Assembly: GCA_002368175.1 (NCBI GenBank)
Contig: AP018172.1
Span: 157,599 to 221,598 of the forward strand
Reading direction: 5' to 3'
Source: Calothrix sp. NIES-2098
Lineage (GTDB): Bacteria > Cyanobacteriota > Cyanobacteriia > Cyanobacteriales > Nostocaceae
Length of the DNA: 64,000 nt
The notes beneath the pieces were generated by a model, which was not told where the DNA came from, did no database searches, and worked only from the letters and a program-made list of their open reading frames with translations. Position 1 is the first letter of the stretch; each line of letters starts with the position of its first letter. This document shows, piece by piece, positions 19,312 to 38,816 of this stretch. The translations under genes and the position numbers were made by a program.

Positions 19312-22300
19312 CTAAGCAAAATTCACTTGCAGAATTATGTCATTATAATCACTGTCACCTCCAGCAAATAAATCTTCAAAACCAAAAGTGTTATCTCCAA
19401 GTTGACGAATGTGATCTACACCGTCTGGATTCGCCGCCATAAAGGCAAAGTAAGCCATTGCACCTTTGTCGGCGGTATTATGAGGATTTTCTGCTAAGAA
19501 TTTTTCAATGGAACTATCTGCAATAATATAAGGTGCAAGCAGTCCCTCTAATTTGGCAGAATCTTTACCATTGCGATTCAAGTTTACAAGGCTACGTTGT
19601 GCGATCGCCGCTTGAGCATAACCTACATCCCCTGGACGTAAGTTACCAATACTTCCGCTTTCATCATCAACAACATACCATCCAATAGTATTGTTATAAG
19701 CTGCTTCGCTAGCTACTTTAAAACTTGCGTCTAATGTCCCTAAATTTCTGAGATCGATTAGTTCTATCTTGCCTTGTAATCCCGTACCTATAGCAGTAGG
19801 TTTTTCATTTGCAACCTCTACATTCAAGATCAGATCGTTAAAGGCAGTATCGCTACTATTTAAAGTATCTTTCCAAGCTAGGGTAAAAGCTTCGTTCTCT
19901 AAGTTAGAAACCTGTAGAGGTGCAAAACCATTCTGATTTGCAGATGGAATAGCAAATAATATATTTGCAGGAGTTCGTCCGGCTGCTAGGTCAGCTAAAA
20001 TCGTATCTGTAGTGCTATTTTGAACTAAGTAAAATACCAAGCGATCGCTGCTATCAAGGTTGAATTGACGGGTAAAGTCAACTCCTTTCAGAACGTTATT
20101 CGGAAGGGCAGAAAAGATGACTTGAGAACTTTTTAGGGCAGTAGCCAGATAATTGGAATTATCTGGAGTTACTCCCTCGATCGTGCCTCGATCGTCATCA
20201 ACAGTAAAAAATCCAATTTCATTGACAAAATTAGTATTTTGTGAATTAAAACTTAATCGCAATTGTTTGGTTTGTCCAGCTTTCCCTCCTAGGCTAAAAA
20301 CTTGATTTTCGTTAAATTTGGCAATTCCATTAGCTACAGCTTCGTCAACTACAGCCGTATCTAGAATTACAAAATCATTGTTTGCATTGGGATCAAAAGT
20401 TTTGCTGTTAATTTGGCTCCGGCTACTAATGATGCCTGTTGTACTTGGTGCAGTAACAGTAATTTCAACAGTTTTGGTGGCGCTAGTGGCTAAATTACCC
20501 AAATCAAAGGTGAGAGTATCTTCTGATTGATTTACAGGCGTTAAATTTGCTGAAACAAATTTGCTACCTTTGGCTAATGTTTCTGATAGGGTAATACCTT
20601 GAGATTCTATTGAACCGTTGTTAGTAATGGTAATTGTGTAAGTTAGGCGATCGGCAATGTTAACTCGATCGGCACTGGCTATTTTAGTAACTGCTAGATC
20701 GGCTTGTGCTGTGATTTGCACCGGGTTGGGTGCATAAGTAAAAACAGGGGCATGGTTCTCGTCAAAAGACATTGCATAGATATGATAAGTACCTGGAGCA
20801 ACGCCTTGAGTATTCCACTTGAAAGTACCTGTGCCGTCTGCTTCTTTGATGCCACTAGCCATGAGAATGCCATCATATCCTGAAGCATCAGTGTCATAAA
20901 ATAAGCTAATCTGAGCCTCAGAGTCAGGATCGGTTGCGGCGTAGTTGATGACAATTTCTGAAGCATCAGCATTGGCAGTAATATTGGTTACTTGAATAGA
21001 AGGTGCTTCTGAATCGCGGAATGCACTAGCTTGAACATCGCCTAAACCAGTTGCATCGACTACATTAATATCCCAAATACCTGCTTCTGGATTGGCAACT
21101 ACCACGGCACGGGTTTTAGAACTACTGAGATTACTAACTACGGAAATATCACTGCTATTAGCAAAGTCCGATTCTTGAAGAATACTGCCATCGGGCTTCT
21201 TAAGTTTTACCTTGACATTATCTGAAGGGGTATCCCAGTTAGCGTTGAAAATAACCCACTTTGTACCTGGATCTACTCGGAAACTATTAATTTCTTTGAG
21301 GAAATTACCAATTTTGATTTGTGCCCTACCATTTAAGTAAACAGTAAATGCGGCATCTTGTTTACCAATAATGGGGATATCAATTTGACCTGAACTACGG
21401 ATAAAATCATTGGCTAGGTTGTTATCATTAGTGAATTCCACAACTGCCTGAGCTGAGGTCAGTTCTTGTCCGCCCAGATTAATTTTCTTCTTACCCAAAA
21501 CAACAGTATCAACCTCGAAGTCAATTGTCGGAGCCTTGATATTGGCATCTGTTACCAAACCAAAATTGAAGTTAGCATCAGCTTTTAACTTACTCTGAGC
21601 ATTGATAATGTCTCCAATGGAAAGATTAAGATTTGCGTCTAAAAACCGGGAGTTCCAGTTGAGAGTGGCATTACCTTGACCTGTAGCTAAACCTCCTAAG
21701 AGCTTAATATTTCCATTACCTTGAATTTGCTCTTGATTCAGACTACCTATTAAGTCAATATCGAACAATGACCCAGAAAAATTAGCACCACCAGCGAACC
21801 AAGAGGGAACAGAAATATCAATCTTTGGCCCGGCAGTGAAGCCAAGCCCACCAGTAAACTCGATGGGATCTGGGTCTGAAGGAGCAACGTTATTGATTTC
21901 ACCACTGATATGCTGGAGGAACGCTCCAGTTGCACCTATAGGTTTATTGAGTTGGTCAGCTTGCAAGGATAAATAATTAAACTGTCCATTGATAAAACCC
22001 ATCCCACCTCCAATTTCTATCCCCGTGGGAATTAAAAGTAAGCCAGAACCTTTAATTTCATTTTGAATGCTATCTAAGCTTAAACTAGCTCTTTTGACTT
22101 CCCAGATATTAGGAACAATTGGAATATTTTCAACAAATATAGAGCCTACAACATCAACCTTCAGTTGCTCCTTATTATCTCGATCCTTAGCATAAGAAAT
22201 CTTGACAAAGTTATTATTTGTGAAGTCTGCTGTGGCGTTGAATATATCTGGAAGTGTTACTTGACCTTGTAACTTTAAGAAGCGATCGGGTTGCTCAACA

Positions 22301-25300
22301 AAAGTAGCTCCTAAATTATTGGACTTAACTTCTAGAAGGTTCAGCAACTTAAAGTTAACATCGGGTAACTTTACAGAGCCACCTGTATTTTGATTGTCAG
22401 TAATTCCAAGCTCATCAATAATTGGTAAAACTTTTTTACCTATATCCTGACGTGTCTGTTCAACAGTAGAGCGAAACAGTAGAGATGACACTAGAAGCTG
22501 AGTGTCGGGAGAAGAAGAAGTTAAAAGAAATGCACCAATTAAAAAACTAAAAAATTCTGGATCTAAGTATGTGAAATATTCATTATTAAGACTATCTACA
22601 GAACTAAACTTCTGTGAAGTAACATTTGTCGGCTTCAAGAGTTTTGTCTCTGCTTTTAGGGAATCATAGTTAACTTCAGCCGCCAGAATAGGATTTAAGT
22701 GTTTATTCAAGGTGGCACTCTTGACGTAATCTATAAAGCCTGAATACCTAAATAGTTCATACTCACCACTAATATAGTCATCACCTGCAAGGCTAACTAA
22801 ATCTCCAGATACAATGTGATGTTTAACTTTTGCCGCTTTGCTAGGATTAAATTTATTTGCCCATTCCTGAGAAATACCAGGAGAGTTGAATGTGTAAACA
22901 TTGCCAATTACTCCACCTTTGTTAGTGAAGTCAGCAGCAAAAAATTGAGTTAATGCGCCGCCTAAACTATGCCCAACAATATCAGAACTTGGATGTTTAT
23001 TTAACCATTCTTCTACTTGAGTTTGATGAGACTGAAACTGTTGAAAACCAACACCTTCCGGTTCAAGATCTGCAAAAATATCTGCTAAAAAGTTGGCAGT
23101 TGGTTCTGTTCCTCGAAGGGCTAGGATAGGTTTGAGTGTTGGGGAAATTAAACCTAACCCATAAAAGCCATTGCCATTAGGATCTTCAAAGACAGCATCT
23201 ACGCTATAGTCTAACCCTAAAGAATTAAGAGTTGCTCCGACTGACCAAGTTTTATAGGCAATGTCTTTAGCTAAATACTCATAAATTTCTGGCGTTGGTG
23301 ATGTAAGTGTTACATCATTATCAACAATGACTAAATTAGCTATTTTTTGACTACCTAAAGTTGCTCCACCTGTGGGGTTAGTTAAAGTCAGGTTAATTGT
23401 TTCGTTGGTTTCGGCTATGGAATCATCAATAATAGGGATTTGGATGACCTTAGAGTTTGTATCCCCAGCAGCAAAATTAACAGTTATAGGAGAATTATTG
23501 TAATCGTTGGGTGCAATAGCAGTACCATTACTGAGGGTAATTGTCGCACTAACTGAACCATTGCTTCCCCCGGTACGAGTAACTGTGACGCCTACAATAG
23601 CTTGACCATTCTCGTTAATACGAAATTCAGGATTACTAAAGCTTAAAATACCAGAGCTGCTTGCAGAACTAACATCTTGAATTGTTGCTAAACCTTGGTC
23701 GTCAGTAATAGTAACACCAGTATTGCTGGTAGTCAGATTGACAAAGAAAGTCTCATCAGCTTCAGACAAAGAATCTGTTAGTGTCTTAACAGTAATTGTT
23801 TTAGTCTTTTCACCTGAATTAAACGTAAGTGTTCCATTAGTAAACTCATAATCTGCACCAATACTAGCTGTGTTACTAGAAGTAGAATAATAAACTGTGA
23901 TTGGTTGTGGATTATCTCCCTCAACTGTGACAGTAAAAGTTGCTAACTCTCCTTCTATGACGACAGCATCATTTATCGATAAAATACAGTTATTAGATAA
24001 TATTTCGGGAGTTGCTATCGATAGTTCGGCATAGGGAGTAGAGCTATAATTGCCATTACTTGTATTGGTATATAAACGAATAATGGCGTGATTAGCACCA
24101 TCATCACCATTGGCAACCAAATCTAAATCACCATCTTTGTCGTAGTCGCTCCATTCCACAAAAGATGGATTCCAACCAATGGTTGTGTTGTTAATAATTG
24201 GTGTAGAAAACCCATTCCCCAGATTGCGATAGACACCAAAGAAACCGATGACTTTCAACTCTGGAGTCAATGCTGTTCCATTGAAGAGAATATCTAAATC
24301 TCCGTCCTGGTCATAATCTTCTAGAATTGGATTTCCACTACTAAAAGAACTACCTGCTGGAGAAGAAATTGACAGTTCGGCATAGGGAGTAGAGCTATAA
24401 TTGCCATTACCTGTATTGGTATATAAACGAATAATGGCATTATTAGCACCATCATCACCATTGGCAACCAAATCTAAATCGCCATCTTTGTCGTAGTCGC
24501 TCCATTCCACAAAAGATGGATTCCAGCCAATGGTTGTGTTGTTAATAATTGGTGTAGAAAACCCATTCCCCAGATTGCGATAGACACCAAAGAAACCGAT
24601 GACTTTCAACTCTGGAGTCAATGCTGTTCCATTGAAGAGAATATCTAAATCTCCGTCCTGGTCATAATCTTCTAGAATTGGATTTCCACTACTAAAAGAA
24701 CTACCTGCTGGAGAAGAAATTGACAGTTCGGCATAGGGAGTAGAGCTATAATTGCCATTACTTGTATTGGTATATAAACGAATAATGGCGTGATTAGCAC
24801 CATCATCACCATTGGCAACTAAATCTAAGTCACCATCTTTGTCATAGTCGCTCCATTCCACAAAAGATGGATTCCAGCCAATGGTTGTGTTGTTAATAAT
24901 TGGTGTAGAAAACCCATTCCCCAGATTGCGATAGACACCAAAGAAACCGATGACTTTCAACTCTGGAGTCAATGCTGTTCCATTGAAGAGAATATCTAAA
25001 TCTCCGTCCTGGTCATAATCTTCTAGAATTGGATTTCCACTACTAAAAGAACTACCTGCTGGAGAAGAAATTGACAGTTCGGCATAGGGAGTAGAGCTAT
25101 AATTGCCATTACTTGTATTGGTATATAAACGAATAATGGCGTGATTAGCACCATCATCACCATTGGCAACTAAATCTAAGTCACCATCTTTGTCATAGTC
25201 GCTCCATTCCACAAAAGATGGATTCCAGCCAATGGTTGTGTTGTTAATAATTGGTGTAGAAAACCCATTCCCCAGATTGCGATAGACACCAAAGAAACCG

Positions 25301-26715
25301 ATGACTTTCAACTCTGGAGTCAATGCTGTTCCATTGAAGAGAATATCTAAATCTCCGTCCTGGTCATAATCTTCTAGAATTGGATTTCCACTACTAAAAG
25401 AACTACCTGCTGGAGAAGAAATTGACAGTTCGGCATAGGGAGTAGAGCTATAATTGCCATTACTTGTATTGGTATATAAACGAATAATGGCGTGATTAGC
25501 ACCATCATCACCATTGGCAACTAAATCTAAGTCACCATCTTTGTCATAGTCGCTCCATTCCACAAAAGATGGATTCCAGCCAATGGTTGTGTTGTTAATA
25601 ATTGGTGTAGAAAACCCATTCCCCAGATTGCGATAGACACCAAAGAAACCGATGACTTTCAACTCTGGAGTCAATGCTGTTCCATTGAAGAGAATATCTA
25701 AATCTCCGTCCTGGTCATAATCTTCTAGAATTGGATTTCCACTACTAAAAGAACTACCTGCTGGAGAAGAAATTGACAGTTCGGCATAGGGAGTAGAGCT
25801 ATAATTGCCATTACTTGTATTGGTATATAAACGAATGATGGCATTATTAGCACCATCATCACCATTGGCAACCAAATCTAAATCACCATCTTTGTCATAG
25901 TCGCTCCATTCCACAAAAGATGGATTCCAGCCAATGGTTGTGTTGTTAATAATTGGTGTAGAAAACCCATTCCCCAGATTGCGATAGACACCAAAGAAAC
26001 CGATGACTTTCAACTCTGGAGTCAATGCTGTTCCATTGAAGAGAATATCTAAATCTCCGTCCTGGTCATAATCTTCTAGAATTGGATTTCCACTAGTGAA
26101 AGTTGTTGAGCTACCATCTTTCTCAATCTCAACAAATTTTCCGTTCAAAATCACTAAAGATTTATCATCCTCAAGCTTGAGTTGAGATAACTTACTTGCA
26201 CTTAAATCTTGCTGCTGTACCAAGGCTGAAAAAATTGCTCCCTCATCTCCTGGGGAGTCGGTATCATTCATGGAATAATCGACAAAATGACCGTATTCTT
26301 CCAAGAAAACATCTAAAATTGCATCCAAGTTGTGAACATTTGCACGCAGAAACTCTTGCGCTAAATAAATTGTATTTGTCGCGCCTGCAAACGCTCCATT
26401 TGCTCCATTAATTTCTGTTGCAGAGATAATTTCTAGCTTAGGTAAACTAAATACCCCATTTTCCCAAGCATTTTGTAAACCCGCAGCTACTCCTTCCCCG
26501 AATGCGATCGCCATTTTATTGCTAAACTCAGAAGTCTTAGCGAACTCTTGCAGCTTCTCCTGAGCAAGTTGGAGTACGGGTTGCACTACAGACGCCAAAA
26601 GATCGTTCTCCACAGTCAGATGATTTACCGGAATCAGTAAATCCTCAAACGGAGTCTTAGTTGTTGATTGCTCAAAAGCTAATAGATTTTTGTTAAAAGT
26701 CTTGTTGGCTATCAT
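19312..26715 (-). CDS. Giant multidomain extracellular-type protein (2467 aa): FG-GAP tandem repeats, 2x Calx-beta, class-3 lipase, PPC-like, DUF11, DUF4114-like
   Basis: Six near-identical 117-aa units each carry two FG-GAP-like DxDxDGDLD motifs. Two Calx-beta-like domains follow. Lipase_3 motif IVGHSLGGALTQ is encoded at ~22955-22980. A DUF11-like repeat (ADLAVTKIA…TYTITITNNG…) follows. The terminal modules end GFEDLFAGGDSDYNDIILQVNFA, paralogous to the 794-aa protein. Confidence 0.8.
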   Translation of the reverse strand: MIANKTFNKNLLAFEQSTTKTPFEDLLIPVNHLTVENDLLASVVQPVLQLAQEKLQEFAKTSEFSNKMAIAFGEGVAAGLQNAWENGVFSLPKLEIISATEINGANGAFAGATNTIYLAQEFLRANVHNLDAILDVFLEEYGHFVDYSMNDTDSPGDEGAIFSALVQQQDLSASKLSQLKLEDDKSLVILNGKFVEIEKDGSSTTFTSGNPILEDYDQDGDLDILFNGTALTPELKVIGFFGVYRNLGNGFSTPIINNTTIGWNPSFVEWSDYDKDGDLDLVANGDDGANNAIIRLYTNTSNGNYSSTPYAELSISSPAGSSFSSGNPILEDYDQDGDLDILFNGTALTPELKVIGFFGVYRNLGNGFSTPIINNTTIGWNPSFVEWSDYDKDGDLDLVANGDDGANHAIIRLYTNTSNGNYSSTPYAELSISSPAGSSFSSGNPILEDYDQDGDLDILFNGTALTPELKVIGFFGVYRNLGNGFSTPIINNTTIGWNPSFVEWSDYDKDGDLDLVANGDDGANHAIIRLYTNTSNGNYSSTPYAELSISSPAGSSFSSGNPILEDYDQDGDLDILFNGTALTPELKVIGFFGVYRNLGNGFSTPIINNTTIGWNPSFVEWSDYDKDGDLDLVANGDDGANHAIIRLYTNTSNGNYSSTPYAELSISSPAGSSFSSGNPILEDYDQDGDLDILFNGTALTPELKVIGFFGVYRNLGNGFSTPIINNTTIGWNPSFVEWSDYDKDGDLDLVANGDDGANNAIIRLYTNTGNGNYSSTPYAELSISSPAGSSFSSGNPILEDYDQDGDLDILFNGTALTPELKVIGFFGVYRNLGNGFSTPIINNTTIGWNPSFVEWSDYDKDGDLDLVANGDDGANHAIIRLYTNTSNGNYSSTPYAELSIATPEILSNNCILSINDAVVIEGELATFTVTVEGDNPQPITVYYSTSSNTASIGADYEFTNGTLTFNSGEKTKTITVKTLTDSLSEADETFFVNLTTSNTGVTITDDQGLATIQDVSSASSSGILSFSNPEFRINENGQAIVGVTVTRTGGSNGSVSATITLSNGTAIAPNDYNNSPITVNFAAGDTNSKVIQIPIIDDSIAETNETINLTLTNPTGGATLGSQKIANLVIVDNDVTLTSPTPEIYEYLAKDIAYKTWSVGATLNSLGLDYSVDAVFEDPNGNGFYGLGLISPTLKPILALRGTEPTANFLADIFADLEPEGVGFQQFQSHQTQVEEWLNKHPSSDIVGHSLGGALTQFFAADFTNKGGVIGNVYTFNSPGISQEWANKFNPSKAAKVKHHIVSGDLVSLAGDDYISGEYELFRYSGFIDYVKSATLNKHLNPILAAEVNYDSLKAETKLLKPTNVTSQKFSSVDSLNNEYFTYLDPEFFSFLIGAFLLTSSSPDTQLLVSSLLFRSTVEQTRQDIGKKVLPIIDELGITDNQNTGGSVKLPDVNFKLLNLLEVKSNNLGATFVEQPDRFLKLQGQVTLPDIFNATADFTNNNFVKISYAKDRDNKEQLKVDVVGSIFVENIPIVPNIWEVKRASLSLDSIQNEIKGSGLLLIPTGIEIGGGMGFINGQFNYLSLQADQLNKPIGATGAFLQHISGEINNVAPSDPDPIEFTGGLGFTAGPKIDISVPSWFAGGANFSGSLFDIDLIGSLNQEQIQGNGNIKLLGGLATGQGNATLNWNSRFLDANLNLSIGDIINAQSKLKADANFNFGLVTDANIKAPTIDFEVDTVVLGKKKINLGGQELTSAQAVVEFTNDNNLANDFIRSSGQIDIPIIGKQDAAFTVYLNGRAQIKIGNFLKEINSFRVDPGTKWVIFNANWDTPSDNVKVKLKKPDGSILQESDFANSSDISVVSNLSSSKTRAVVVANPEAGIWDINVVDATGLGDVQASAFRDSEAPSIQVTNITANADASEIVINYAATDPDSEAQISLFYDTDASGYDGILMASGIKEADGTGTFKWNTQGVAPGTYHIYAMSFDENHAPVFTYAPNPVQITAQADLAVTKIASADRVNIADRLTYTITITNNGSIESQGITLSETLAKGSKFVSANLTPVNQSEDTLTFDLGNLATSATKTVEITVTAPSTTGIISSRSQINSKTFDPNANNDFVILDTAVVDEAVANGIAKFNENQVFSLGGKAGQTKQLRLSFNSQNTNFVNEIGFFTVDDDRGTIEGVTPDNSNYLATALKSSQVIFSALPNNVLKGVDFTRQFNLDSSDRLVFYLVQNSTTDTILADLAAGRTPANILFAIPSANQNGFAPLQVSNLENEAFTLAWKDTLNSSDTAFNDLILNVEVANEKPTAIGTGLQGKIELIDLRNLGTLDASFKVASEAAYNNTIGWYVVDDESGSIGNLRPGDVGYAQAAIAQRSLVNLNRNGKDSAKLEGLLAPYIIADSSIEKFLAENPHNTADKGAMAYFAFMAANPDGVDHIRQLGDNTFGFEDLFAGGDSDYNDIILQVNFA
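23990..26100. repeat. Tandem array of six ~351-bp units (>95% identical) inside the giant gene
   Basis: The motif gttcggcatagggagtagagc recurs at 24024, 24375, 24726, 25077, 25428 and 25779 (period 351). The last unit runs to ~26100. Units differ at only a few positions (N/H, S/G substitutions in the protein). Confidence 0.85.
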
Positions 26716-27595: not shown

Positions 27596-28894
27596 ATGGT
27601 AGATGTTTATATTGTTGACCTGCTAATAGTTGGGCTACTTTTGTTGCTCGTCACATTAGGGTCAGGGTGGATTTCACGATTACCACTTTCCTTTGCGCTC
27701 ATCTATCTAATAGTAGGAATTCTCTTAGGGCCTTATGGCTTTGGGCTGATTCAATTGCGCCGCAATGATGTATTCAATGCAGAGGTTTTAGAGCGTATTG
27801 CCGAATTGGTAGTAATTATTTCTGTGTTTAGCTGTGGGTTAAAAATAGTACGACCTCTCAAATTAGGAATTTGGGATATTACAGCCCGCCTCATAGGATT
27901 TTTAATGCCAATTTCAATTTTTGCCTTGGCTATTGTCGGTAAATTATTTTTAGGCATGGATTGGGGAGCAGCGATTTTATTAGGCGCTATTCTTGCACCA
28001 ACAGACCCAGTTCTAGCATCAGAAGTGCAACTAACCGATACAAACGATCGCGATGAGTTGCGCTTTGGTTTAACTTCCGAAGGAGGTTTGAATGATGCTT
28101 TAGCATTTCCCTTCGTTTATTTTGGTATTTATGCCCTCAAAGATAGCAACTGGAATAATTGGTTGAAAAATTGGTTATTAGTTGATTTAATTTGGGCGAT
28201 CGCTGCTGGTATAGTAATGGGAATTGTTGTAGCCAAGGTAATAGTTTGGCTGGATAAGAAAATCCAAAAGCGTCGTCCTGCCGATGACCTGATGGAAGAT
28301 TTTATCGCTATTAGTATTATTCTTTTGACTTACTCCATCACAGAAATAGTCAATGGCTATGGGTTTTTAGCAGTATTTGTTGCTGGTTTAGTTGCACAAC
28401 GTAGTTACCACAATCCAGACAAATCACTTGCCCAACTAGGATTTATTGAGCGATTGGAAAGATTGCTAGAAGTCGGGACAATTTTGTTATTGGGATCGAT
28501 ATTATTATTGCAGCCAATGCTAAATTATGCGGCTCAATCTTTGTTAGTGATAGTTTTGTTATTCTTCGTTATCCGACCTGTAGGTGTTTGGATTAGTACA
28601 ATCGGCAAACGTCCTCTCAATTCTTATCGTCGAACCTTGAATCCAGTTACACGTTGGTTATTTGGCTGGTTTGGCATTCGTGGTGTTGGCTCTTTATATT
28701 ATCTTGCCTATGCATATGGTAATGGCTTAAAAGGTGAAACTGCCGAGCAAATTGCTTGGATAACTTACACCACGATTGTAGTTTCTGTGATTGTGCATGG
28801 AATTAGCACCACGCCATTAATGAGTTGGTATGAACGAAATACTGCTCGCGATACAAAGCCTCATATTCCTGCCACAATTGATGAATTGGAATAA
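27596..28894 (+). CDS. Na+/H+ antiporter (CPA1/NhaP-type)
   Basis: 432 aa, polytopic, with a Na_H_exchanger-like N-terminus (…LLGPYGFGLIQ…). It follows a ~880-bp AT-rich leader. Confidence 0.7.
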   Translation: MVDVYIVDLLIVGLLLLLVTLGSGWISRLPLSFALIYLIVGILLGPYGFGLIQLRRNDVFNAEVLERIAELVVIISVFSCGLKIVRPLKLGIWDITARLIGFLMPISIFALAIVGKLFLGMDWGAAILLGAILAPTDPVLASEVQLTDTNDRDELRFGLTSEGGLNDALAFPFVYFGIYALKDSNWNNWLKNWLLVDLIWAIAAGIVMGIVVAKVIVWLDKKIQKRRPADDLMEDFIAISIILLTYSITEIVNGYGFLAVFVAGLVAQRSYHNPDKSLAQLGFIERLERLLEVGTILLLGSILLLQPMLNYAAQSLLVIVLLFFVIRPVGVWISTIGKRPLNSYRRTLNPVTRWLFGWFGIRGVGSLYYLAYAYGNGLKGETAEQIAWITYTTIVVSVIVHGISTTPLMSWYERNTARDTKPHIPATIDELE

Positions 28895-28953
28895 TGGGCA
28901 TGGGGCATGCGACATTGGGCATCGGGTATTTTTCCCTTGTCCCACACTCTGAC

Positions 28954-31239
28954 TTACGAAAGAACTTCATGCAAGGTATTAAGTAACATATGGGCTGTAA
29001 AGGGCTTGGCTAGGAATTCTCGGATACCAAGGCTCTTTTTTTGAGCAGCAGCTTCATAGGCCATAATTCCACTCATGGCTATAATTTGTGCCTTTGGATT
29101 CATGCGTTGCAACATGAGTATTGTGCTATTGCCATCCATGACCGGCATCATGATGTCTATTAACACTACGCTGATATCATCTATGTGCTGGGCGTAAAGT
29201 GCTAAAGCTCCAATGCCATCATTAGCAGTTAAAATTCTATAATTATGACTTTCTAAAGTAGTTTTCGCGATTTGGCAAATTGAGACTTCATCATCTACTA
29301 CTAAAATCAATTCGCCATGACCGCTTGCTAATTCTGTGTTGGTAATTGCTTGAGTCTCTGTAGCTTCTCTACTCGGTAAGTAAACCTTAAAACAGCTTCC
29401 CTGGTCTACTTCGCTATGCACGGTCACAAATCCGTTGTGGTTTTTGATAATACCCATGACAGTAGAAAGCCCTAGACCCGTTCCTTTACCAATTTCTTTG
29501 GTGGTAAAAAATGGGTCAAAAATGCGATCCATTATTTCTGGTGAAATGCCTGTGCCAGTATCAGCGATAGTGATGACAACATAAAAACCTTCTTGAGCAT
29601 CGACGTGCATACTGGCGTAGTTTTGATCTATCCAGAGGTTTTCTGCACTAATCCTCAAAGTACCGCCATCGGGCATCGCATCACGCGCATTTACGCAGAG
29701 GTTCATTAGTACTTGATGCAGTTGAGTTGCATCTGCAAAAACTGTCCACAGATCTGGGGCGATGTCAGTTTTTGTTTCAATAAATTTGGGGAAAGTACGT
29801 TGAGCAACCTGTGCGACATCTGAAAGTAAGTGCCGTACTTGGACGATGGAGCGACTACCTTCAACACCGCGTGTAAAAGATAGAATTTGCTGGACTAAAT
29901 CAGCACCTCGCTTGGCACTCCCTTCTAGTATGCGCAGTAGTTGTTGTGTATTTTCATCGAGTTCGGGGATTTTAAGCGGTAGCAGTTGTGCAGTTGCCAA
30001 AATTGGCGTCAGGATATTGTTAAAGTCGTGGGCAATACCACTGGCAAGACTACCCAAGCTTTCCAGCCTTTGAGCGCGGAGAAATTGTGCTTCTAGTTGC
30101 TTTTTTTGAGTAATATCTGTACTGAGGGTCAAAATTGATTTCGGATTCCCAACTTCATCGCGCATTAGTGTCCAGCGACTTTCGACAATCAGATCTTGAC
30201 CATCTTTTGTAACTTGCTGCAACTCACCTTGCCATTGATCTTCCTGAGCTAATACTTTTTTTATTTCTAAAAACGGTGGGGAAGTTTCTCCAGATTTGCA
30301 CAAAAGTTGAGCAGCATTTCTCCCTAGAACTTCTGCTGTTGTCCATCCGTAAAGGCGCTCTGCACCTTTATTCCAAAATAAGATATGATTTTCTAGGTTA
30401 CAAACTGCGATCGCATCTGTGGAAATATCTAATAACGCAGCTTGTTCGTAGATTTTCTGTGCTGCTTGTTTGCGATCGCTAATGTCTTCAACAGTTCCTA
30501 CATGACCCAAAAATCTGTCTTCTGCGGAATACATTGGGCTAGCAAGGGCACGCACCCATCGTACTTCACCTTGGGGAGTTAAGAGCCTGTACTCGTTAAC
30601 CCAGGTGCTTTGTTCTGATAATGTCCGCTGCCAATCTTGAACAACCGCATCTCTATCTTCTGGGTGAATCGCTTGCAGCCAATCGTAGCCTAAACTATCC
30701 TCAGCGCTGAAGCCGGAAATCTCATACCATAAAGGATTGTTGTAAGTAAGCTTTCCTTTAGCATCAGTCTGGAAGATAGCCAAAGGAGCCGAAGAGCAGA
30801 GCGTGCGAAAGCGGTCTTCGCTTTCTCGAAAAGCCTGTTCTGCACTATGCCGTTTGTACCGTTCCTCAGCTTCCCGCAACTCTCGCTCAACAGCAGGCAC
30901 AAGGCGGGCGAGATTACCTTTAATGAGATAGTCGTGAGCGCCAGCCTTCATGGCGGCGACAGCAATATCCTCACCAATTGTACCGGAGACAATAATAAAT
31001 GGTAAATCCAGCTTTTGCTTTTGCACGATCTTCAAAGCGTCTAAACCGCTGAAGGCAGGTAGACTGTAATCGGCAATCACAACATCCCACGATCGCTGAT
31101 TTAACGCTGCTTCCATGCCATCGGCGGTATCGACTCTCACATAGTTGAGCGTATATCCACTGCGACGCAACTCTCTTACAAGTAGGAGAGTATCATCTTC
31201 CGAATCCTCAACAATCAGAACATTCAGGTAAGGGAGCAT
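28954..31239 (-). CDS. Hybrid sensor histidine kinase/response regulator (REC-PAS-PAS-HisKA-HATPase-REC)
   Basis: N-terminal REC (…LIVEDSEDD…VVIADYSLP…), PAS regions, H-box …GIAHDFNNILTPI…, and the G1/G2 ATPase motifs. C-terminal REC (…ILVVDDEVS…LIDIMMPVMDG…). Confidence 0.85.
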   Translation of the reverse strand: MLPYLNVLIVEDSEDDTLLLVRELRRSGYTLNYVRVDTADGMEAALNQRSWDVVIADYSLPAFSGLDALKIVQKQKLDLPFIIVSGTIGEDIAVAAMKAGAHDYLIKGNLARLVPAVERELREAEERYKRHSAEQAFRESEDRFRTLCSSAPLAIFQTDAKGKLTYNNPLWYEISGFSAEDSLGYDWLQAIHPEDRDAVVQDWQRTLSEQSTWVNEYRLLTPQGEVRWVRALASPMYSAEDRFLGHVGTVEDISDRKQAAQKIYEQAALLDISTDAIAVCNLENHILFWNKGAERLYGWTTAEVLGRNAAQLLCKSGETSPPFLEIKKVLAQEDQWQGELQQVTKDGQDLIVESRWTLMRDEVGNPKSILTLSTDITQKKQLEAQFLRAQRLESLGSLASGIAHDFNNILTPILATAQLLPLKIPELDENTQQLLRILEGSAKRGADLVQQILSFTRGVEGSRSIVQVRHLLSDVAQVAQRTFPKFIETKTDIAPDLWTVFADATQLHQVLMNLCVNARDAMPDGGTLRISAENLWIDQNYASMHVDAQEGFYVVITIADTGTGISPEIMDRIFDPFFTTKEIGKGTGLGLSTVMGIIKNHNGFVTVHSEVDQGSCFKVYLPSREATETQAITNTELASGHGELILVVDDEVSICQIAKTTLESHNYRILTANDGIGALALYAQHIDDISVVLIDIMMPVMDGNSTILMLQRMNPKAQIIAMSGIMAYEAAAQKKSLGIREFLAKPFTAHMLLNTLHEVLS

Positions 31240-31252
31240 CTTGACTAACTCT

Positions 31253-31696
31253 CTAAAGGGATGGCACCTCGTTCATTAGTAACCAGTACATTCCTAGTTG
31301 TCGAACTGCTTCGGTAAACTGTATAAAATCTACAGGTTTGCGGATATAACTGTTGCACCCCAAACTGTAACTCTTGAGTAAATCTTGTTCTTCACTGGAA
31401 GTAGTCAAAATTACAACAGGTAGCAGGCTAGTACGTTTGTCTGCTCGCAAGCGACGCAATACTTCCAGACCATCGATACGGGGTAACTTAAGATCCAACA
31501 AAACCACAGTGGGTTTAATGCTGATATCCCGCCCAGTGTGAACTCCAGTGCCAAAGAGGTAATCTAGAGCTTCGACACCATCGCGAGCTACTACTATCTC
31601 ATTACTGATATGATTGCGCCTGAGTGCGCGAATAGCTAAGGCTTCGTCATCAGGATTATCTTCTACCAGTAAAATCGTTTTATTGCTCACACTCAT
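31253..31696 (-). CDS. Single-domain response regulator (REC only)
   Basis: …ILLVEDNPDDEALAIRAL…VLLDLKLPRIDGLEVL…. Its start overlaps the stop of the upstream kinase by 4 nt (ATGA), suggesting translational coupling. Confidence 0.85.
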   Translation of the reverse strand: MSVSNKTILLVEDNPDDEALAIRALRRNHISNEIVVARDGVEALDYLFGTGVHTGRDISIKPTVVLLDLKLPRIDGLEVLRRLRADKRTSLLPVVILTTSSEEQDLLKSYSLGCNSYIRKPVDFIQFTEAVRQLGMYWLLMNEVPSL

Positions 31697-33117
31697 GCTC
31701 CAGCCTCATCTGCTACTAATGTAAAGTAAAAAGTAGCTCCTTGTTCGACAAATCCTTCTGCCCACACCCGGCCGCCATGCCGATGCACAATTCGTTGCAC
31801 TATGGCTAACCCGATTCCAGTTCCGGGAAATTCATCGATTCTATGTAGCCGTTGGAAGGGGCCAAATAACTTGTTGGCGTAGGCCATATCAAAGCCTGCA
31901 CCATCATCGCGAATAAAGTAGACTGGAATGTCACTGTCTTGTGACATTGCACCAAACTCAATTTTGGCTTGAGCATGCTTAGAGGTAAATTTCCAAGCAT
32001 TATCGAGTAAGTTTGTCAACATCATTTGCAACAAGCGACTATCTCCTTGAGCTATAAGTCCCGGTTGAATCACAAACTCGACTTGTCGCCCTGGCTGTCT
32101 TTCTTGAGCTTCTCTGGCAATTTCCCTTGCTAATACACTTAAATCTACAGTTTCCAAGTGCATTTCGCTACGCATCAACCGCGATAAGTTGAGCAGGTCA
32201 TCGATCAATTGACCCATTCGCTGCGTAGCTAACCGAATTCGCTGGAGATAATTCTTTCCTGTTTCGTCTAGCTGGTCTTCGTAGTCTTCTAGTAGAGCCT
32301 GACTAAAGCCATCAATACTGCGTAGGGGGGCACGTAGATCGTGAGAGACAGAGTAGCTAAAAGCTTCTAGTTCTTTATTTACTGCTTGTAGTTCAATAAT
32401 TGCTCGTTGTAATCCTTGATTGAGAGAAATTACTGCTTGTTCGGCTTGCTGGCGCTCTAACACTTCTGCTTGAACATCTGCAAGCAGTTCGGCGTGTTGC
32501 AGCGCTACAGCTAGATGACTAGCAATTTGGGTCGCAAACTCAATCTCTGTGGCTTGCCATTCTCGTGGCGCACTACATTGGTGAATACACAACAATCCCC
32601 AGAGTTTATCGCTCTGTAGTAGTGGTAGTACTAAGTTAGCTCTGATTTCAAATTGCGCCAGAACTTGAACGTGACAATCGCTCAAACCAGCAGTGTGAAT
32701 ATCGGCGACAGCTTGAATTCTCCCCTGCTGATAATGAACTGCAAACTGCTCGCCAAAGCAGTGGTCGTGAATTCTTTGCGCCATAGCTGATGGAAAAGCC
32801 GGATCTACATCTTCAGAAACAAATTCCCCATCATCCCAACCAGAATCTGGGTAGAAGCGAAACATCCCCACTCGGTCTGCTGCTAAAAGTTGGCGCACTT
32901 CGGTAGCTGTAGCGTGAAAAATTGTTTCTAGGTCTATTGGTTCGCGTAGGCGAGTAATTACGCGAAATAATGCTTTTTGCTGCTGTACCTGGAAATTTGC
33001 TTGATTAATTTTATGCTCTGATTGTAAAACTTCATCGCCCAGGATCTGCTTGATTTGTTCAAATGCCGCTTCATCGCGGCATAAATCCCGCAGCTTCGCC
33101 AATTTCTCTGGGTTCAT
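31693..33117 (-). CDS. Cyanobacteriochrome-type (DXCF) GAF sensor histidine kinase
   Basis: The GAF domain has a DHCF motif 29 residues upstream of the canonical bilin-binding Cys in …DIHTAGLSDCHVQVLAQFEIRANLVLPLL…LWGLLCIHQCSAPREWQATEIEF…. This mirrors the TePixJ-type CBCR GAF consensus. HisKA (…SHDLRAPLRSI…) and HATPase_c follow. Confidence 0.65.
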   Translation of the reverse strand: MNPEKLAKLRDLCRDEAAFEQIKQILGDEVLQSEHKINQANFQVQQQKALFRVITRLREPIDLETIFHATATEVRQLLAADRVGMFRFYPDSGWDDGEFVSEDVDPAFPSAMAQRIHDHCFGEQFAVHYQQGRIQAVADIHTAGLSDCHVQVLAQFEIRANLVLPLLQSDKLWGLLCIHQCSAPREWQATEIEFATQIASHLAVALQHAELLADVQAEVLERQQAEQAVISLNQGLQRAIIELQAVNKELEAFSYSVSHDLRAPLRSIDGFSQALLEDYEDQLDETGKNYLQRIRLATQRMGQLIDDLLNLSRLMRSEMHLETVDLSVLAREIAREAQERQPGRQVEFVIQPGLIAQGDSRLLQMMLTNLLDNAWKFTSKHAQAKIEFGAMSQDSDIPVYFIRDDGAGFDMAYANKLFGPFQRLHRIDEFPGTGIGLAIVQRIVHRHGGRVWAEGFVEQGATFYFTLVADEAGA

Positions 33118-33329
33118 TCTTTGTTATATGGTAGGGGCTGGTAATAATGTCAGAAAGTCAAAAATCAAAAGAATTATATTTTTGAGTTTTTAGCTGTTTT
33201 TAATATAGATATAGATATTGTAGGCGATCGCTTCACGAGCAAAAATCCAGTACACAAATGTATAAGGCACAACAATATATTGTGCCCCTACCATTTGCAT
33301 ATTATTTAATTGCCAATCCCCTAAAACAA

Positions 33330-33896
33330 CTAACTTGATGCTGTATTAGCGGCTGGTGATGCTTTGGCGTTGGCTGGAGCGCCACCCATGCGAATCTCAG
33401 ATATGAAGGAAGCCATGCTAAAGCCATCGTTGTGCTTCATCACGCTGGCTCGCATCCGCAAGTTGGGGCTAGCAAACCAGATGCGCTCCTCAGACCATAT
33501 AGTTTCAGACTCTATAGTTAGCGTCACAGCGTCATCACTGCCAATTTTGTACCGTCCGGCAATATCAACTGTTGCAGCATTATTCGTTTCTTGTAGCAGC
33601 TTGCCTTCATTGGGGTTATCTGCATCTGGTACTGCAACTAATACAGTAGAGCCACTATGTTTTTCTTTATCCCCTGCTATAGCTCCGTTGCCAGTAACTC
33701 TGACACTACAAGCAGCACTACTGGGGTTAACTTCATATTTTTGACACAGCTTGATTACCTCTGGATCGTCTGCTGCCAGCATTTCAATGATGATATTTGA
33801 TTTACCTTCTTCGGATTGCTTCACAGCTAAAAGATGACTAGTGCGATGGGAAAACCATTTACCAGCGCTCAACTCAAAAAACTCTTCTATATTCAT
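33330..33896 (-). CDS. cpcS: Phycobilin lyase CpcS/CpcU family
   Basis: [33 protein letters not shown]…[18 protein letters not shown]…[18 protein letters not shown]…[13 protein letters not shown] is collinear with CpcS-I sequences. It carries an extra Ala/Ser-rich C-terminal tail. Confidence 0.7.
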
Positions 33897-34054
33897 GATT
33901 GAAACTTACCTGCATCAAAATGCTGAAAAACCCACTTATTACAAGGTAGCAGGAGGCGTTGCCGAGGGTATACCCTGGAAGGAGATAAGAGATTGTGGGG
34001 AGACAAGGGAAGGGAGAACTAATCGGTGACTAATGACCCTTGACCCTTGACTAC

Positions 34055-34744
34055 TCAACTTTCACTATCTGTTGCTTCGAGTCGCGTCAGAGAAATTCTT
34101 GCTGCTTCTGCAACGTGGGAATGGCTATCTTTTTCTAAATATTTCAAGGCTGAGATACTCTTGGGGGTAGGAAGATTACCTAAAGCTTCTGCAAGACGCT
34201 GGCGCACTAACCAATCCTCTGCCTGGGCAAAGCGGAGAATGAGGTCTACAGACTCAATATCTTTAATTTCTCCTAATGCCGCGATCGCAGCTTGATGTAA
34301 TATGACTTCTTCACTATCCAGCGCTTGAATCAGAATCGCATGGGCACGCGGATCTTTAATATTGCCTAGAGAAACTGCCACACTAAAGCGTACTAGCCAA
34401 TCAGTATCTTCATAAAACGCCCGTGACAGCACCTCAAAGGCTCTGGCATCGCCTAGATATCCCAAGGCTCCAGCAGCATCAGCACGCATCCCATAATCTG
34501 GGTCAGTTTCGAGAATTTTTACTAAAAGTGGATAACTTTCTGGCGTCTGTTTAATTCCCAGAGCAAAAATTGCCATTGAACGCAGTTGCAGAGATTCGTC
34601 ATTTAACACCTTTTTAATTAACGGTAGGGCATCTTCAGACGGAACATCTCGCAGATTAGCCAAGGCTACCATGCGATCGCGCAAATTGGGACTTTCTAAC
34701 TGAGCCGAAATTTCTTCTAAGCTTAGAGCAGCCATGTTTCTCAC
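34055..34744 (-). CDS. HEAT-repeat protein (PBS-lyase HEAT-like; CpcE/F/NblB-related)
   Basis: Five or more HEAT-like repeats (…VRxxAAxALGxIGD…). It lies adjacent to cpcS. Confidence 0.6.
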   Translation of the reverse strand: MRNMAALSLEEISAQLESPNLRDRMVALANLRDVPSEDALPLIKKVLNDESLQLRSMAIFALGIKQTPESYPLLVKILETDPDYGMRADAAGALGYLGDARAFEVLSRAFYEDTDWLVRFSVAVSLGNIKDPRAHAILIQALDSEEVILHQAAIAALGEIKDIESVDLILRFAQAEDWLVRQRLAEALGNLPTPKSISALKYLEKDSHSHVAEAARISLTRLEATDSES

Positions 34745-34979
34745 TTTCTTTACTTATCTTTACTTTACAAAATTACTCATAATAAAGGGCACCTTCCCTT
34801 TGGGGGGTTAACCATACCTAAATTGGTAGGGAATGGGACACTGGGCACTGGGCATTGCTCATTTCTCCCCACACTCCCAGACAGACTACTACCAAATTCA
34901 TCCGCAAGTCTTACTTGTTGCCGATGACAAGCAGAACTGAAAATTGGTGCAATAAATCTAGTTTTGACCAGCAGTACTC

Positions 34980-36137
34980 ATGACAAACCGCGTTTTGATT
35001 CTTGGAGGTAGGGGAAGGATTGGTAGCAGTGTTGCTCAAGATCTAGCCATCCACACCCAAGCACAAATTACGATTACCGGACGTTCCCCAGTGCCTGAGG
35101 GAGAAGAAGATGCCAAGTGGCTCAGTAGCAAAAATAACTGGACTTTAGGAACACAGGTAGAATTTTTGGTGTTGGACTTGGCGGAAGTTGACAAACTGCG
35201 GGAGGCGATCGCCAATTCTGATTTAGTCATCCATTGTGCTGGCCCTTTTCATTACCGAGACACTAAAGTTCTAGAAATTTGTATTGAACAAGGCGTTAAC
35301 TATCTAGATGTCAGCGATCATCGTTCATATACTAGCAAGGCTTTAAAATATAACGAACAAGCTGCCGCCGCAAATGTCACCGCAATTATAAATACAGGAA
35401 TTTTTCCTGGTATTTCTAATAGTATGGTTCGGCAATGTGTCGAGCAATTCGACAAACCAGAAAAAATCCATCTCAGTTATTTAGTTTCTGGTTCCGGTGG
35501 TGCTGGTGTTACAGTCATGCGGACAACCTTTTTAGGGTTACAACATACTTTTGAAGCTTGGATAGATGGTAAATGGCAAGTAGTTAAACCCTACAGCGAA
35601 AGAGAAATTATTAGTTTTCCATCACCCTATGGGCGCAGTGGAGTTTACTGGTTTGATATGCCAGAAACTTTTACAATGCCTCATTCTTTCCCATCAGTCA
35701 AAACTGTTATTACAAAATTTGGTTCCATACCCGATTTTTATAATCATCTTACTTGGGTAGCAGCCCATATCTTTCCTAAAGCCTTAATGCAACGTCGTAG
35801 CACGATTGAATTTTTATCTCATGTTAGTCATTTTATGACCGATGTTACTAATCCTTTTACAGGGATTGGCGTAGCAGTGCGTGCAGAAGTCACAGGGCAA
35901 AAAGATGGTAAAACAGCGATTTATTGTGCTGATTTAGTCTATGCAAATACAGCATTAGCTTCTGGTTGCGGAACAGGTAGCATTGCCCAGTTATTACTAG
36001 AAGGCAAACTGAAAAAGCCCGGAGTAGCACCTGTAGAAGAAGCGTTACCAACAGATTTATTTGTGCAAACAATGGCAAGCCGAGGAATTTCAATTAATCA
36101 TAGTTGGGTGGAAAATATACCCAGTTATGCAATATAA
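34980..36137 (+). CDS. Saccharopine dehydrogenase-like NAD(P)-binding oxidoreductase
   Basis: N-terminal Rossmann motif VLILGGRGRIGSSVAQDL, and Sacchrp_dh-like length and organisation. Confidence 0.6.
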   Translation: MTNRVLILGGRGRIGSSVAQDLAIHTQAQITITGRSPVPEGEEDAKWLSSKNNWTLGTQVEFLVLDLAEVDKLREAIANSDLVIHCAGPFHYRDTKVLEICIEQGVNYLDVSDHRSYTSKALKYNEQAAAANVTAIINTGIFPGISNSMVRQCVEQFDKPEKIHLSYLVSGSGGAGVTVMRTTFLGLQHTFEAWIDGKWQVVKPYSEREIISFPSPYGRSGVYWFDMPETFTMPHSFPSVKTVITKFGSIPDFYNHLTWVAAHIFPKALMQRRSTIEFLSHVSHFMTDVTNPFTGIGVAVRAEVTGQKDGKTAIYCADLVYANTALASGCGTGSIAQLLLEGKLKKPGVAPVEEALPTDLFVQTMASRGISINHSWVENIPSYAI

Positions 36138-37397: not shown

Positions 37398-38816
37398 ATG
37401 ATTTTATTAGCTATGCCACATGAAGAGTCATTGCTGACTAACCAGGATAATTTGCCTATCAATACTATCGCGTCCTATGTTTGTCAAGCTATTATTTCTA
37501 TTCAAGAGCAGCAGCCAGAATTATTAAACGAAAAATTCAAGCATATTCAGTGGCGTAGCAATACTATTGAACCTAAATTAGCAGAAATATTGAGCCAAAC
37601 ACCAGACTATAATGCATTAATACAAAAGTTGAATATCCACCTAAAAAATTGGTTAATTCCTGAAGCTTTTAAATCCCAAATATTAATAGATTTATTACAT
37701 AAAGTTAATCAACTTAATCCTCAAAAAAATTATTTAGATAATACAGCTAATTTTAAATATGTAGAATCATCTGAAACTTTTATGTCTGCTGATAATGTTG
37801 TTGCTTTACAGCAGACAGGAATAGCCATTTTACTTTTGGATGCAGAAAACTTAATAATAAACCATGAATCTGAACAGTTTTTAACTCAAGTTTGTCACTT
37901 TCCTCTACAAGTCAAGATTGCATTTGCTAATTGGCGCAGTATAAGTAAAAAAATCGATGTTGAATTACATAATCGTGGCTACGATCTGATTCATGTTCCT
38001 GCTGGCCGAGACCATGCTGATGGTAAAATGATAGCTTTTGGCTCATCTATCCATGAACGTTACCCAAACGCCAAAGAAGTTTTCGTCTGTTCATCAGATA
38101 CGGTTATGACTAACCTATGCAATCATATTCAGCAGAATGGATTGCTCGTGTATCGGGTTAGCAAGCAGGGAGAAACTGTAACAGTATTTAATTCTTCGAC
38201 TGGAAAGACTATAATTAACATCCCTGTTTTGCCAGCCAAAATTTCATCAATTGAAAAATTTATTCTAGAATTAAAGATTTTAATAAAAAAAGAGCAAATA
38301 AATAGCCAAAATTTTTGGATTAAACTTTCTAGGCTCTCAGAAATATTTAAAAATGAATATAAAATAACTATTAGCCAAGTTGTTTCTAAATATTTGCCAG
38401 GTAAAAAGGCTAGAGATATTTTTATTAACTATCCTGCTGATTTTGTTATTCATCAAATCGATCCAACTTCTGAATTATATGTAACGCTATTGGAAGTTAA
38501 TCAATCACAACCAATAGATAACAATAATCAGGCTCACGGTAGTAGCATTCCAGAGTCTTCATTGCTAAATATTAATACAAAAGCAGATCTGGAACAAGCA
38601 CTTCAAAATCTTATCAAAAGCTTAAATCAAAAATCATCTGACAGCTATGTTAATGCTGGAATTTTAGCTAGCGAATTCAATAAAAAATATAGTAAACCAA
38701 TTACTCAACAGATGAAAAGTTTGCAAATAACTGGTACTTATATCAAATTTTTGCAGTCCAGTAGTTGTTTTACACTTAGGCAAACAGACAAAGGGTGGGA
38801 AGTAAAGAACTCTTAA
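37398..38816 (+). CDS. NYN-domain (LabA-like RNase) protein with two C-terminal OST-HTH/LOTUS-like domains
   Basis: NYN core …IAILLLDAENL…VKIAFANW…DGKMIAFGSSIHERYPNAKEVFVCSSDTVMTNL…. Two ~70-aa LOTUS-like segments follow (…FWIKLSRLSEIFKNEYKITISQ… and …NAGILASEFNKKYSKPITQQMKSLQITGTYIKFLQSS…). The gene is markedly AT-rich relative to its neighbours. Confidence 0.55.
   Translation: MILLAMPHEESLLTNQDNLPINTIASYVCQAIISIQEQQPELLNEKFKHIQWRSNTIEPKLAEILSQTPDYNALIQKLNIHLKNWLIPEAFKSQILIDLLHKVNQLNPQKNYLDNTANFKYVESSETFMSADNVVALQQTGIAILLLDAENLIINHESEQFLTQVCHFPLQVKIAFANWRSISKKIDVELHNRGYDLIHVPAGRDHADGKMIAFGSSIHERYPNAKEVFVCSSDTVMTNLCNHIQQNGLLVYRVSKQGETVTVFNSSTGKTIINIPVLPAKISSIEKFILELKILIKKEQINSQNFWIKLSRLSEIFKNEYKITISQVVSKYLPGKKARDIFINYPADFVIHQIDPTSELYVTLLEVNQSQPIDNNNQAHGSSIPESSLLNINTKADLEQALQNLIKSLNQKSSDSYVNAGILASEFNKKYSKPITQQMKSLQITGTYIKFLQSSSCFTLRQTDKGWEVKNS

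Follow-up and report, generated by a model that had tools for sequence, protein, structure and literature searches.

Background

The dpxABC genes of Fremyella diplosiphon, which include the gene of the light-colour sensor DpxA, were described in mBio in 2016 (Wiltbank & Kehoe, PMC4752607) and in Journal of Bacteriology in 2026 (Wiltbank-Chau et al., PMC13492139). According to the 2016 paper, DpxA is 474 amino acids (aa) long and has a single GAF and a single kinase domain, and the protein purified from phycocyanobilin (PCB)-producing E. coli switches from a form absorbing yellow (568 nm) to one absorbing teal (494 nm) and back (PMC4752607). The same source reports that the teal-absorbing form, made by yellow light, has approximately threefold stronger autophosphorylation and reverts slowly in darkness, and that the loss of DpxA leads to more phycoerythrin (PE) in F. 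diplosiphon without dependence on RcaC. In this study, a 64,000-nt stretch of the Calothrix sp. NIES-2098 genome (contig AP018172.1), hereafter the window, was analysed. The genes at 28954–33117 are very probably the ortholog of dpxABC and would encode a teal/yellow sensor system, and the adjoining cpcS and HEAT-repeat genes form an independent unit that is a neighbour by local synteny only.

Other photoreceptors and regulators provide the background for the comparison. TePixJ has a blue/green photocycle, and many DXCF domains have a blue-absorbing dark state. NpR5113g1 of Nostoc punctiforme is one GAF of a multi-GAF protein. RcaE is without the DXCF second Cys, and RcaC has an HPt domain. The 2016 paper names NpR5113g1 as the characterised GAF most like DpxA (PMC4752607); this teal/yellow-green DXCF GAF has a colour pair similar to that of DpxA.

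The 2026 survey found the dpx operon in 86 of the 95 genomes examined, covering 13 orders, and the genera named in its Table 2 include Calothrix (PMC13492139). Chromatic acclimation was lost in double mutants with rcaE, and the authors proposed that Dpx exerts its output by way of Cgi/IF3a or by cross-talk with the Rca proteins (PMC13492139). The supplement of a 2022 survey lists Calothrix sp. NIES-2098 as a predicted type 3 chromatic acclimation (CA3) strain with RcaE, allophycocyanin, phycocyanin and PE (PMC9415938); a physiological context like that of the F. diplosiphon experiments is therefore plausible for this strain. An earlier reading of the window, made by a model from the letters and the open reading frames (ORFs) and called here the original prediction, had described the locus as a cyanobacteriochrome phosphorelay beside bilin lyase genes.

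Methods

All coordinates are given on the scale of the whole 64,000-nt window. Genes were taken from the ORF list, and the proteins were compared with Pfam, NCBIfam and solved structures in the Protein Data Bank (PDB). For the neighbourhood analysis, 80 dpxA loci were fetched from a species-level genome collection and their neighbours were scored by tblastn. All-against-all clustering of the ORFs of 82 dpxA loci was used to find a conserved output gene. The spacer between cpcS and dpxA was compared in a multi-genome alignment of 12 loci. Consensus promoter and terminator scans covered 28700–35000, and the whole window was scanned with Rfam at gathering thresholds, which gave 0 matches.

Results

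Identity of the locus with dpxABC

Five consecutive minus-strand genes span 28954–34744, the same limits as in the original prediction (Table 1). The ORF list, Pfam, NCBIfam and PDB matches agree that a CpcS-type lyase gene and a HEAT-repeat, PBS-lyase-like gene lie directly upstream of three signalling genes. These three genes, for the kinase, a receiver (REC)-only protein and a hybrid kinase, form a tight unit, as had been predicted. The dpxA stop and the dpxB start overlap by 4 nt (ATGA), in keeping with the proposed translational coupling of the kinase to the receiver gene, and the gap between dpxB and dpxC is 13 nt. The hybrid kinase had been read as REC-PAS-HK-REC; the overall architecture was confirmed, but Pfam gives two PAS domains rather than a single one.

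DpxA of the window and BAY07032.1 of Calothrix sp. NIES-2098 share 100% identity, and many full-length homologs of DpxA with 72–91% identity occur in various cyanobacterial genera. The full-length identity of the window DpxA is 84% to a 474-aa Tolypothrix/F. diplosiphon protein (P0017), which is encoded in a syntenic locus (L001). The source of this protein is assembly GCA_000300115.1, which we take to be the F. diplosiphon/PCC 7601 genome. At the matching positions of L001, tblastn gave identities of 91% for DpxB, 82% over 100% of the length for DpxC, 89% for the HEAT-repeat protein and 66% for the CpeS-family protein, as well as 84% and 86% for the products of an opposite-strand Na/H exchanger gene and a saccharopine dehydrogenase (DH)-like gene, respectively. 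These identities at matching positions indicate that the window carries the positional ortholog of dpxABC.

The gene order of L001 is RF-1, 224-aa HEAT protein, CpeS, 474-aa kinase, 147-aa REC protein, 764-aa hybrid histidine kinase and an opposite-strand gene. This is the order drawn in Fig. S1B of the 2016 paper, which shows the hybrid histidine kinase, the response regulator, DpxA, a CpeS-like gene, a PBS lyase gene and an RF1-like gene, with the gene past the hybrid kinase on the opposite strand (PMC4752607). The Calothrix and F. diplosiphon loci are alike in the order of the three signalling genes, in protein length (474/147/761 aa in the window and 474/147/764 aa in F. diplosiphon) and in domain architecture, with two PAS domains in both DpxC proteins. 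In both loci, dpxB begins where the dpxA match ends, CpeS-like and HEAT/PBS-lyase genes lie upstream and an opposite-strand Na/H exchanger gene lies downstream. The original prediction had named DpxA as a target for alignment and missed that the locus is dpxABC itself.

The 2026 survey recognised dpxABC by a DpxA of more than 67% identity, a DpxB of at least 73% and a DpxC with 0–3 PAS domains (PMC13492139). The corresponding values for the window are 84% for DpxA, 91% for a DpxB encoded directly downstream, and two PAS domains with 82% identity for DpxC. A paralogous dpx-like operon also exists, and its DpxA-like protein differs in how many PAS domains it has (PMC13492139). This paralog was ruled out for the locus by the synteny of the HEAT, CpeS, Na/H exchanger and saccharopine-DH-like genes (66–89% identity), together with a DpxA in which Pfam finds no PAS domain.

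The two loci differ in their outer flanks. Beyond the HEAT gene, F. diplosiphon has RF-1-like, DUF1499 and HSP20 genes, whereas the saccharopine-DH-like gene directly follows HEAT in the window. Beyond the Na/H exchanger gene, approximately 12.5 kb of extra genes are found in the Calothrix window. This extra block (15296–26715) separates the exchanger gene from GerE, DUF4168 and DNA polymerase III delta genes, which are approximately 0.4 kb away in L001. It encodes a 794-aa FG-GAP/DUF4114 protein, a 485-aa protein with a peptidyl-prolyl isomerase domain and a 2467-aa protein with FG-GAP, Calx-beta, Lipase_3, DUF11 and DUF4114 domains; 5.9 tandem copies of a 351-bp unit with 98% identity (24023–26102) lie in the gene of the latter.

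Table 1 Features of the dpx locus and its upstream neighbours in the window
Feature	Position	Strand	Description
dpxA	31693–33117	-	474-aa DXCF cyanobacteriochrome histidine kinase; N-terminal helix region, GAF, HisKA, HATPase_c (ORF list, Pfam)
DpxA GAF, bilin-binding domain	32500–32934	-	residues 62–206; Pfam GAF E = 1e-22
DpxA DXCF Cys120	32758–32760 (codon)	-	DHCF from residue 118
DpxA canonical Cys148	32674–32676 (codon)	-	SDCH from residue 146
DpxA phospho-acceptor His259	32341–32343 (codon)	-	
dpxB	31253–31696	-	147-aa single-domain response regulator; Response_reg alone (Pfam); predicted phospho-acceptor Asp68
dpxC	28954–31239	-	761-aa hybrid kinase, REC(Asp57)-PAS-PAS-HisKA(His404)-HATPase_c-REC(Asp695) (Pfam)
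GCGATCGCCTACAAT	33217–33231	-	HIP1 site then -10-like TACAAT; approximately 100 nt upstream of the dpxA ATG
Stem-loop	33250–33300	-	just past the cpcS stop; minimum free energy -22.3 kcal/mol, z = -5.67, 0/200 shuffles fold as well
cpcS-type (CpcS-III-like) phycobiliprotein lyase gene	33330–33896	-	188 aa; Pfam CpeS
HEAT-repeat, NblB-like/PBS-lyase-like gene	34055–34744	-	229 aa from a GTG start; ATG 3 codons in

The GAF domain of DpxA

When the GAF region was compared with solved structures, GAF domains of cyanobacteriochromes matched beyond chance, with E-values from 4e-46 to 4e-29. The matches were 6OAP (4e-46), TePixJ 3VV4 (4e-33), RcaE 7CKV (2e-31) and AnPixJ 3W2Z (4e-29), and TePixJ 4GLQ was also among them; the RcaE GAF was thus a weaker match than that of TePixJ. 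In the alignment with 3VV4, the DHCF motif (D118-H-C120-F121) stands opposite DPCF, and Cys148-His149 stands opposite Cys-His; with their flanks, ihDHCFge faces ieDPCFre and lsdCHv faces lteCHl. Both cysteines that the original prediction had pointed out in the 474-aa kinase are therefore present and sit at chromophore-binding positions, as found by the alignment to characterised cyanobacteriochromes that it had suggested as a check. The DXCF Cys is present in 179 of 180 unique homologs, and all 180 retain the canonical Cys and the H-box His259. By every feature that can be judged from its sequence, the kinase is a DXCF cyanobacteriochrome.

TePixJ (PDB 3VV4/4GLQ) is the prototype of this class and shares with DpxA a homologous GAF fold and the alignment of both chromophore cysteines. 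The two proteins differ in that TePixJ is part of a methyl-accepting chemotaxis protein, whereas DpxA combines a histidine kinase with a yellow/teal photocycle.

Some further cysteines of DpxA were observed. Cys177 and Cys181 (LLCIHQC), which are distinct from the chromophore cysteines, are invariant in the 180 homologs, and Cys13 of the N-terminal pre-GAF segment is invariant in a 12-sequence alignment. No Pfam domain matched residues 1–61, which are 69% identical to those of F. diplosiphon DpxA.

The original prediction had assigned the photoreceptor to a blue/green or blue/teal type, and this assignment was not supported, given that the 84%-identical ortholog was measured at teal 494 nm and yellow 568 nm. 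The corresponding alternative is that the kinase is a blue-absorbing DXCF sensor of the blue/green or blue/teal type, with a stable second thioether in the dark and colours unlike those of F. diplosiphon DpxA. The alignment of its DXCF motif and canonical Cys with those of the blue/green TePixJ is in favour of this alternative, as are the frequent blue-absorbing dark states of DXCF domains and 22 substitutions among the 145 GAF positions relative to F. diplosiphon DpxA. Three of these substitutions are located just before the canonical Cys, where His141/Thr142/Ala143 correspond to Tyr/Asn/Cys of F. diplosiphon. However, the GAF domains of the two proteins are 85% identical, and positions 141–143 vary naturally across the family, with His, Tyr or Ser at position 141 in the 12-sequence alignment. 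We therefore regard a blue-absorbing sensor as unlikely and retain the teal/yellow assignment.

Conservation of the neighbouring genes

In the tblastn scoring, dpxB came directly after dpxA in practically all loci for which sequence was available, with dpxC next in nearly all. ORF clustering placed the DpxA family in 82 of the 82 loci, DpxB in 78 and DpxC in 73, followed by the HEAT family in 15, the CpeS and Na/H exchanger families in 12 each and the saccharopine DH family in 11. No other family occurred in more than 8 of the 82 loci, and no DNA-binding regulator was conserved among them. Therefore, the neighbourhood gives no clue to the Dpx output.

The CpeS and HEAT genes lie upstream of dpxA only in the closest relatives, those with a DpxA at least 81% identical. 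These relatives are Aulosira, Nostoc sp. 106C and T09, Calothrix NIES-2100, Tolypothrix tenuis, Nostoc carneum, Nostoc linckia FACHB-104, Tolypothrix FACHB-123, Calothrix membranacea and F. diplosiphon. Most loci with this adjacency also share synteny of the Na/H exchanger and saccharopine-DH-like genes. In the reverse test, all four of the other Nostocales genomes checked (a Trichormus-like contig, Cylindrospermum stagnale PCC 7417, Iningainema tapete and Chlorogloeopsis fritschii) had a HEAT ortholog with 83–88% identity directly upstream of cpcS and lacked dpx genes around the pair. In Iningainema tapete, the HEAT-cpcS pair and dpxABC are on different contigs. The restriction of the adjacency to one clade, in which unrelated flanking genes are equally syntenic, points to shared ancestry rather than selection. 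We therefore read cpcS/HEAT and dpx as two independent units that lie side by side through locally inherited gene order, and not as a functional module under conservation.

These data bear on the proposal that the locus links light-colour sensing to bilin attachment. Under this proposal, the five genes would constitute one light-colour module, in which the relay is coupled to bilin attachment by co-regulation or by a dedicated lyase/isomerase for the sensor. The five genes are indeed adjacent on one strand, the arrangement recurs in F. diplosiphon and about ten other genomes, and DpxA regulates a bilin-carrying antenna protein (PMC4752607). The consensus scan also placed no canonical terminator or promoter in the cpcS-dpxA spacer. 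Against such a module, the adjacency is limited to approximately 12 of the 82 loci, all of close relatives, where the exchanger and saccharopine-DH-like genes are equally conserved, and the HEAT-cpcS pair stands alone in the four other genomes checked. No joint transcript of dpxA and the upstream cpeS-like gene was detected in F. diplosiphon by reverse transcription PCR (RT-PCR) (PMC13492139), and the cpcS-dpxA spacer holds a strong hairpin and a conserved -10-like box. Full-length F. diplosiphon DpxA was photoactive in PCB-producing E. coli, with no added lyase mentioned in the section consulted (PMC4752607). A single five-gene module is thus very improbable, and the functional link to the adjacent lyase genes was not upheld; two independent units remain the preferred explanation.

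An OmpR-type regulator gene at 41874–42611 (+) was considered as the Dpx output and rejected; it is approximately 7 kb away, is not conserved near dpx elsewhere and encodes an RpaB-like protein below the cutoff. The protein has REC and Trans_reg_C domains, and its best NCBIfam match was RpaB with 227 bits against a cutoff of 330 bits.

Two dpxA contigs came from metagenome-assembled genomes (MAGs) labelled 'Rhizobium sp. Q54' and 'Methylacidiphilales bacterium' (L058, CALRKB020000006.1, and P0070). Their DpxA proteins show 73–74% identity, and L058 also carries dpxB and dpxC. These contigs are probably cyanobacterial ones, mis-binned into non-cyanobacterial MAGs.

The spacer between cpcS and dpxA

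The spacer is 212 nt long and poorly conserved except for two blocks. The first, a GCGATCGCC-TACAAT block, is present in 11 of the 12 syntenic loci and unique in the window, with 0 occurrences expected by chance; it is a candidate promoter element of dpxABC on the basis of this conservation. The second is a stem-loop, the core of which (GGCACAA...TTGTGCC) occurs in 7 of the 12 aligned loci. From its predicted folding, the stem-loop is a candidate terminator or 3'-end structure that would set cpcS apart from dpxA. It was missed by the consensus terminator scan, as a clean T-run is lacking. The consensus scans of promoters and terminators yielded fewer sites than in shuffled sequence, and none of these sites was on the coding strand of the cpcS-dpxA spacer; the stem-loop and the TACAAT block came to light solely through the multi-genome alignment. 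In place of the stem-loop, F. diplosiphon and its closest relatives carry short repeats of G-rich and CTCAGCACT types. The dpx gene junctions fit one transcript, and the hairpin and TACAAT block would fit a separate start and hence separate transcription of cpcS and dpxA; the direct RNA evidence comes from F. diplosiphon (PMC13492139).

The CpcS-type lyase and the HEAT-repeat protein

The 188-aa protein matched PF09367 (CpeS) over residues 2–170 of 170 (E = 6e-58) and the Ycf58/CpcS structure of T. elongatus (3BDR) over residues 1–177 (E = 3e-61), and its homologs are annotated as phycobiliprotein lyases or CpcS-III family proteins. It resembles CpcS-III of Thermosynechococcus elongatus (Tlr1699, 3BDR) and the S-type lyases over its full length, and its lyase activity is predicted from these matches. 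From knowledge of the family, this protein is most likely a general, housekeeping PCB lyase for phycobiliproteins.

NblB is a HEAT-repeat bilin-lyase homolog that is needed for phycobilisome degradation. The HEAT-repeat protein of the window has the Pfam domains HEAT_2 and HEAT_PBS, and NblB was its best NCBIfam match; the match covers the whole protein, and HEAT_PBS repeats occur in both. Since its score of 157 bits is below the 300-bit equivalog cutoff, the protein is an NblB paralog and not NblB proper. We know of no description of a conserved position upstream of cpcS for NblB.

In all the Nostocales genomes examined, HEAT and cpcS are paired on one strand, irrespective of whether dpx adjoins them; the pair lies at approximately 4150–5576 in the four dpx-free loci (L084–L087). 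Across the examined genomes, the HEAT protein is better conserved (83–96% identity) than CpcS (66–84%). No description of this pairing, which corresponds to alr0616/alr0617 in Nostoc 7120, was found in a limited literature search. Because the pair is kept in every genome examined and HEAT is the better conserved partner, the HEAT protein might be an overlooked partner of CpcS-III in heterocyst-forming cyanobacteria; a second possibility is that the position of dpxABC just downstream of the pair in Calothrix, Tolypothrix and Aulosira permits a degree of read-through or shared regulation, which might link bilin attachment to yellow/teal sensing. We consider either proposal to have little probability. 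The evidence argues against a linkage of dpx to HEAT-cpcS, and low-level co-regulation may occur in the Calothrix/Tolypothrix/Aulosira clade.

Other features of the window

A Ser/Thr kinase with C-terminal pentapeptide repeats (538 aa) and an FHA-domain protein (257 aa) are encoded one after the other at 50607–53490 (+) and may be a phospho-signalling pair. A gene at 37398–38816 (+), located between the saccharopine-DH-like gene and a HAD hydrolase gene in an AT-rich stretch (GC content approximately 0.34), encodes a 472-aa protein with a weak NYN-domain match (E = 2e-5). A DDE-family transposase ORF (1826–2839, +; 337 aa; GC content 0.35) lies near psbB (6903–8432) and a gene for an S1-domain protein.

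Discussion

The published work already covers the dpxABC system with its operon structure and wide conservation, and also the adjoining CpeS-like and PBS-lyase genes; the Calothrix locus is very probably a further member of this family. By orthology with F. diplosiphon, PCB would be bound in the DXCF GAF of DpxA and would undergo the 568 nm/494 nm cycle. Yellow light would convert DpxA into its kinase-active, teal-absorbing form, and blue or teal light would reverse this conversion. Phosphate would be transferred from His259 of DpxA to Asp68 of DpxB and/or to the receivers of DpxC (Asp57, Asp695), and DpxC may bring in further signals by way of two PAS domains and a kinase core of its own (His404). 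Because the operon encodes neither a DNA-binding nor an HPt domain, the output would act through partners outside the operon. By analogy, yellow-light repression of PE that complements the red/green sensor RcaE is most likely the role of the system in this strain. The link to phycobilisome remodelling in the original prediction is thus supported by orthology as far as the repression of PE is concerned (PMC4752607; PMC13492139), and its link to bilin attachment is not.

The resemblance to RcaE/RcaF/RcaC that had been predicted also stood in part. Both systems consist of a cyanobacteriochrome kinase, a single receiver and a large protein with two receivers, and both regulate PE in CA3 strains, including F. 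diplosiphon. From this pattern, the dpx genes could be read as an RcaE/RcaF/RcaC-type four-step phosphorelay, the last protein of which directly controls transcription. The deeper analogy failed at DpxC, which has PAS domains and a complete HisKA-HATPase core and in which Pfam finds neither an HPt domain (PF01627) nor a Trans_reg_C/OmpR-type DNA-binding domain; an HPTransfase match was sub-threshold and inside the ATPase region. DpxC is not an RcaC-type terminal component, and no DNA-binding gene is conserved beside dpxABC in the 82 loci. The GAF domain of DpxA is not of the RcaE red/green type either, as the DXCF second Cys is present and the ortholog absorbs at 568/494 nm. In the 2016 paper, RcaE senses red/green and DpxA teal/yellow light, RcaC is a response regulator and transcription factor, and the effect of DpxA on PE is independent of RcaC (PMC4752607). 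A relay of the Rca type is consequently extremely improbable, and a dpxABC ortholog with its output outside the operon is the reading we retain.

Several points weigh against this reading. The protein P0017 was equated with the published DpxA (WP_045867496) by length, organism name and gene order and not by an accession match. Photochemistry and phenotype are taken from the F. diplosiphon ortholog, and the Calothrix proteins are known here from their sequences. Because 22 of the GAF residues differ, three of them directly before the canonical Cys, the absorption maxima of Calothrix DpxA could differ from those of F. diplosiphon by small spectral shifts. The phosphotransfer from DpxA to DpxB and DpxC is an inferred step. 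Moreover, single deletions of dpxB and dpxC had no yellow-light phenotype in F. diplosiphon, so the main output of DpxA may bypass both proteins, and many dpx-bearing species are without PE, so PE control may be neither the ancestral nor the sole role of Dpx (PMC13492139). The CA3 and PE status of the strain comes from a survey table, where it was predicted from sequence (PMC9415938).

Conclusions

The names dpxA, dpxB and dpxC can be given to the signalling genes of the Calothrix locus; the gain is a correct annotation with little beyond. The bilin-lyase adjacency, which was already drawn in the supplementary figure of the 2016 paper (PMC4752607), is a clade-local synteny and offers no basis for inferring the output of Dpx. 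Calothrix sp. NIES-2098 is predicted to tune its PE to yellow versus teal/blue light by the Dpx system alongside RcaE.

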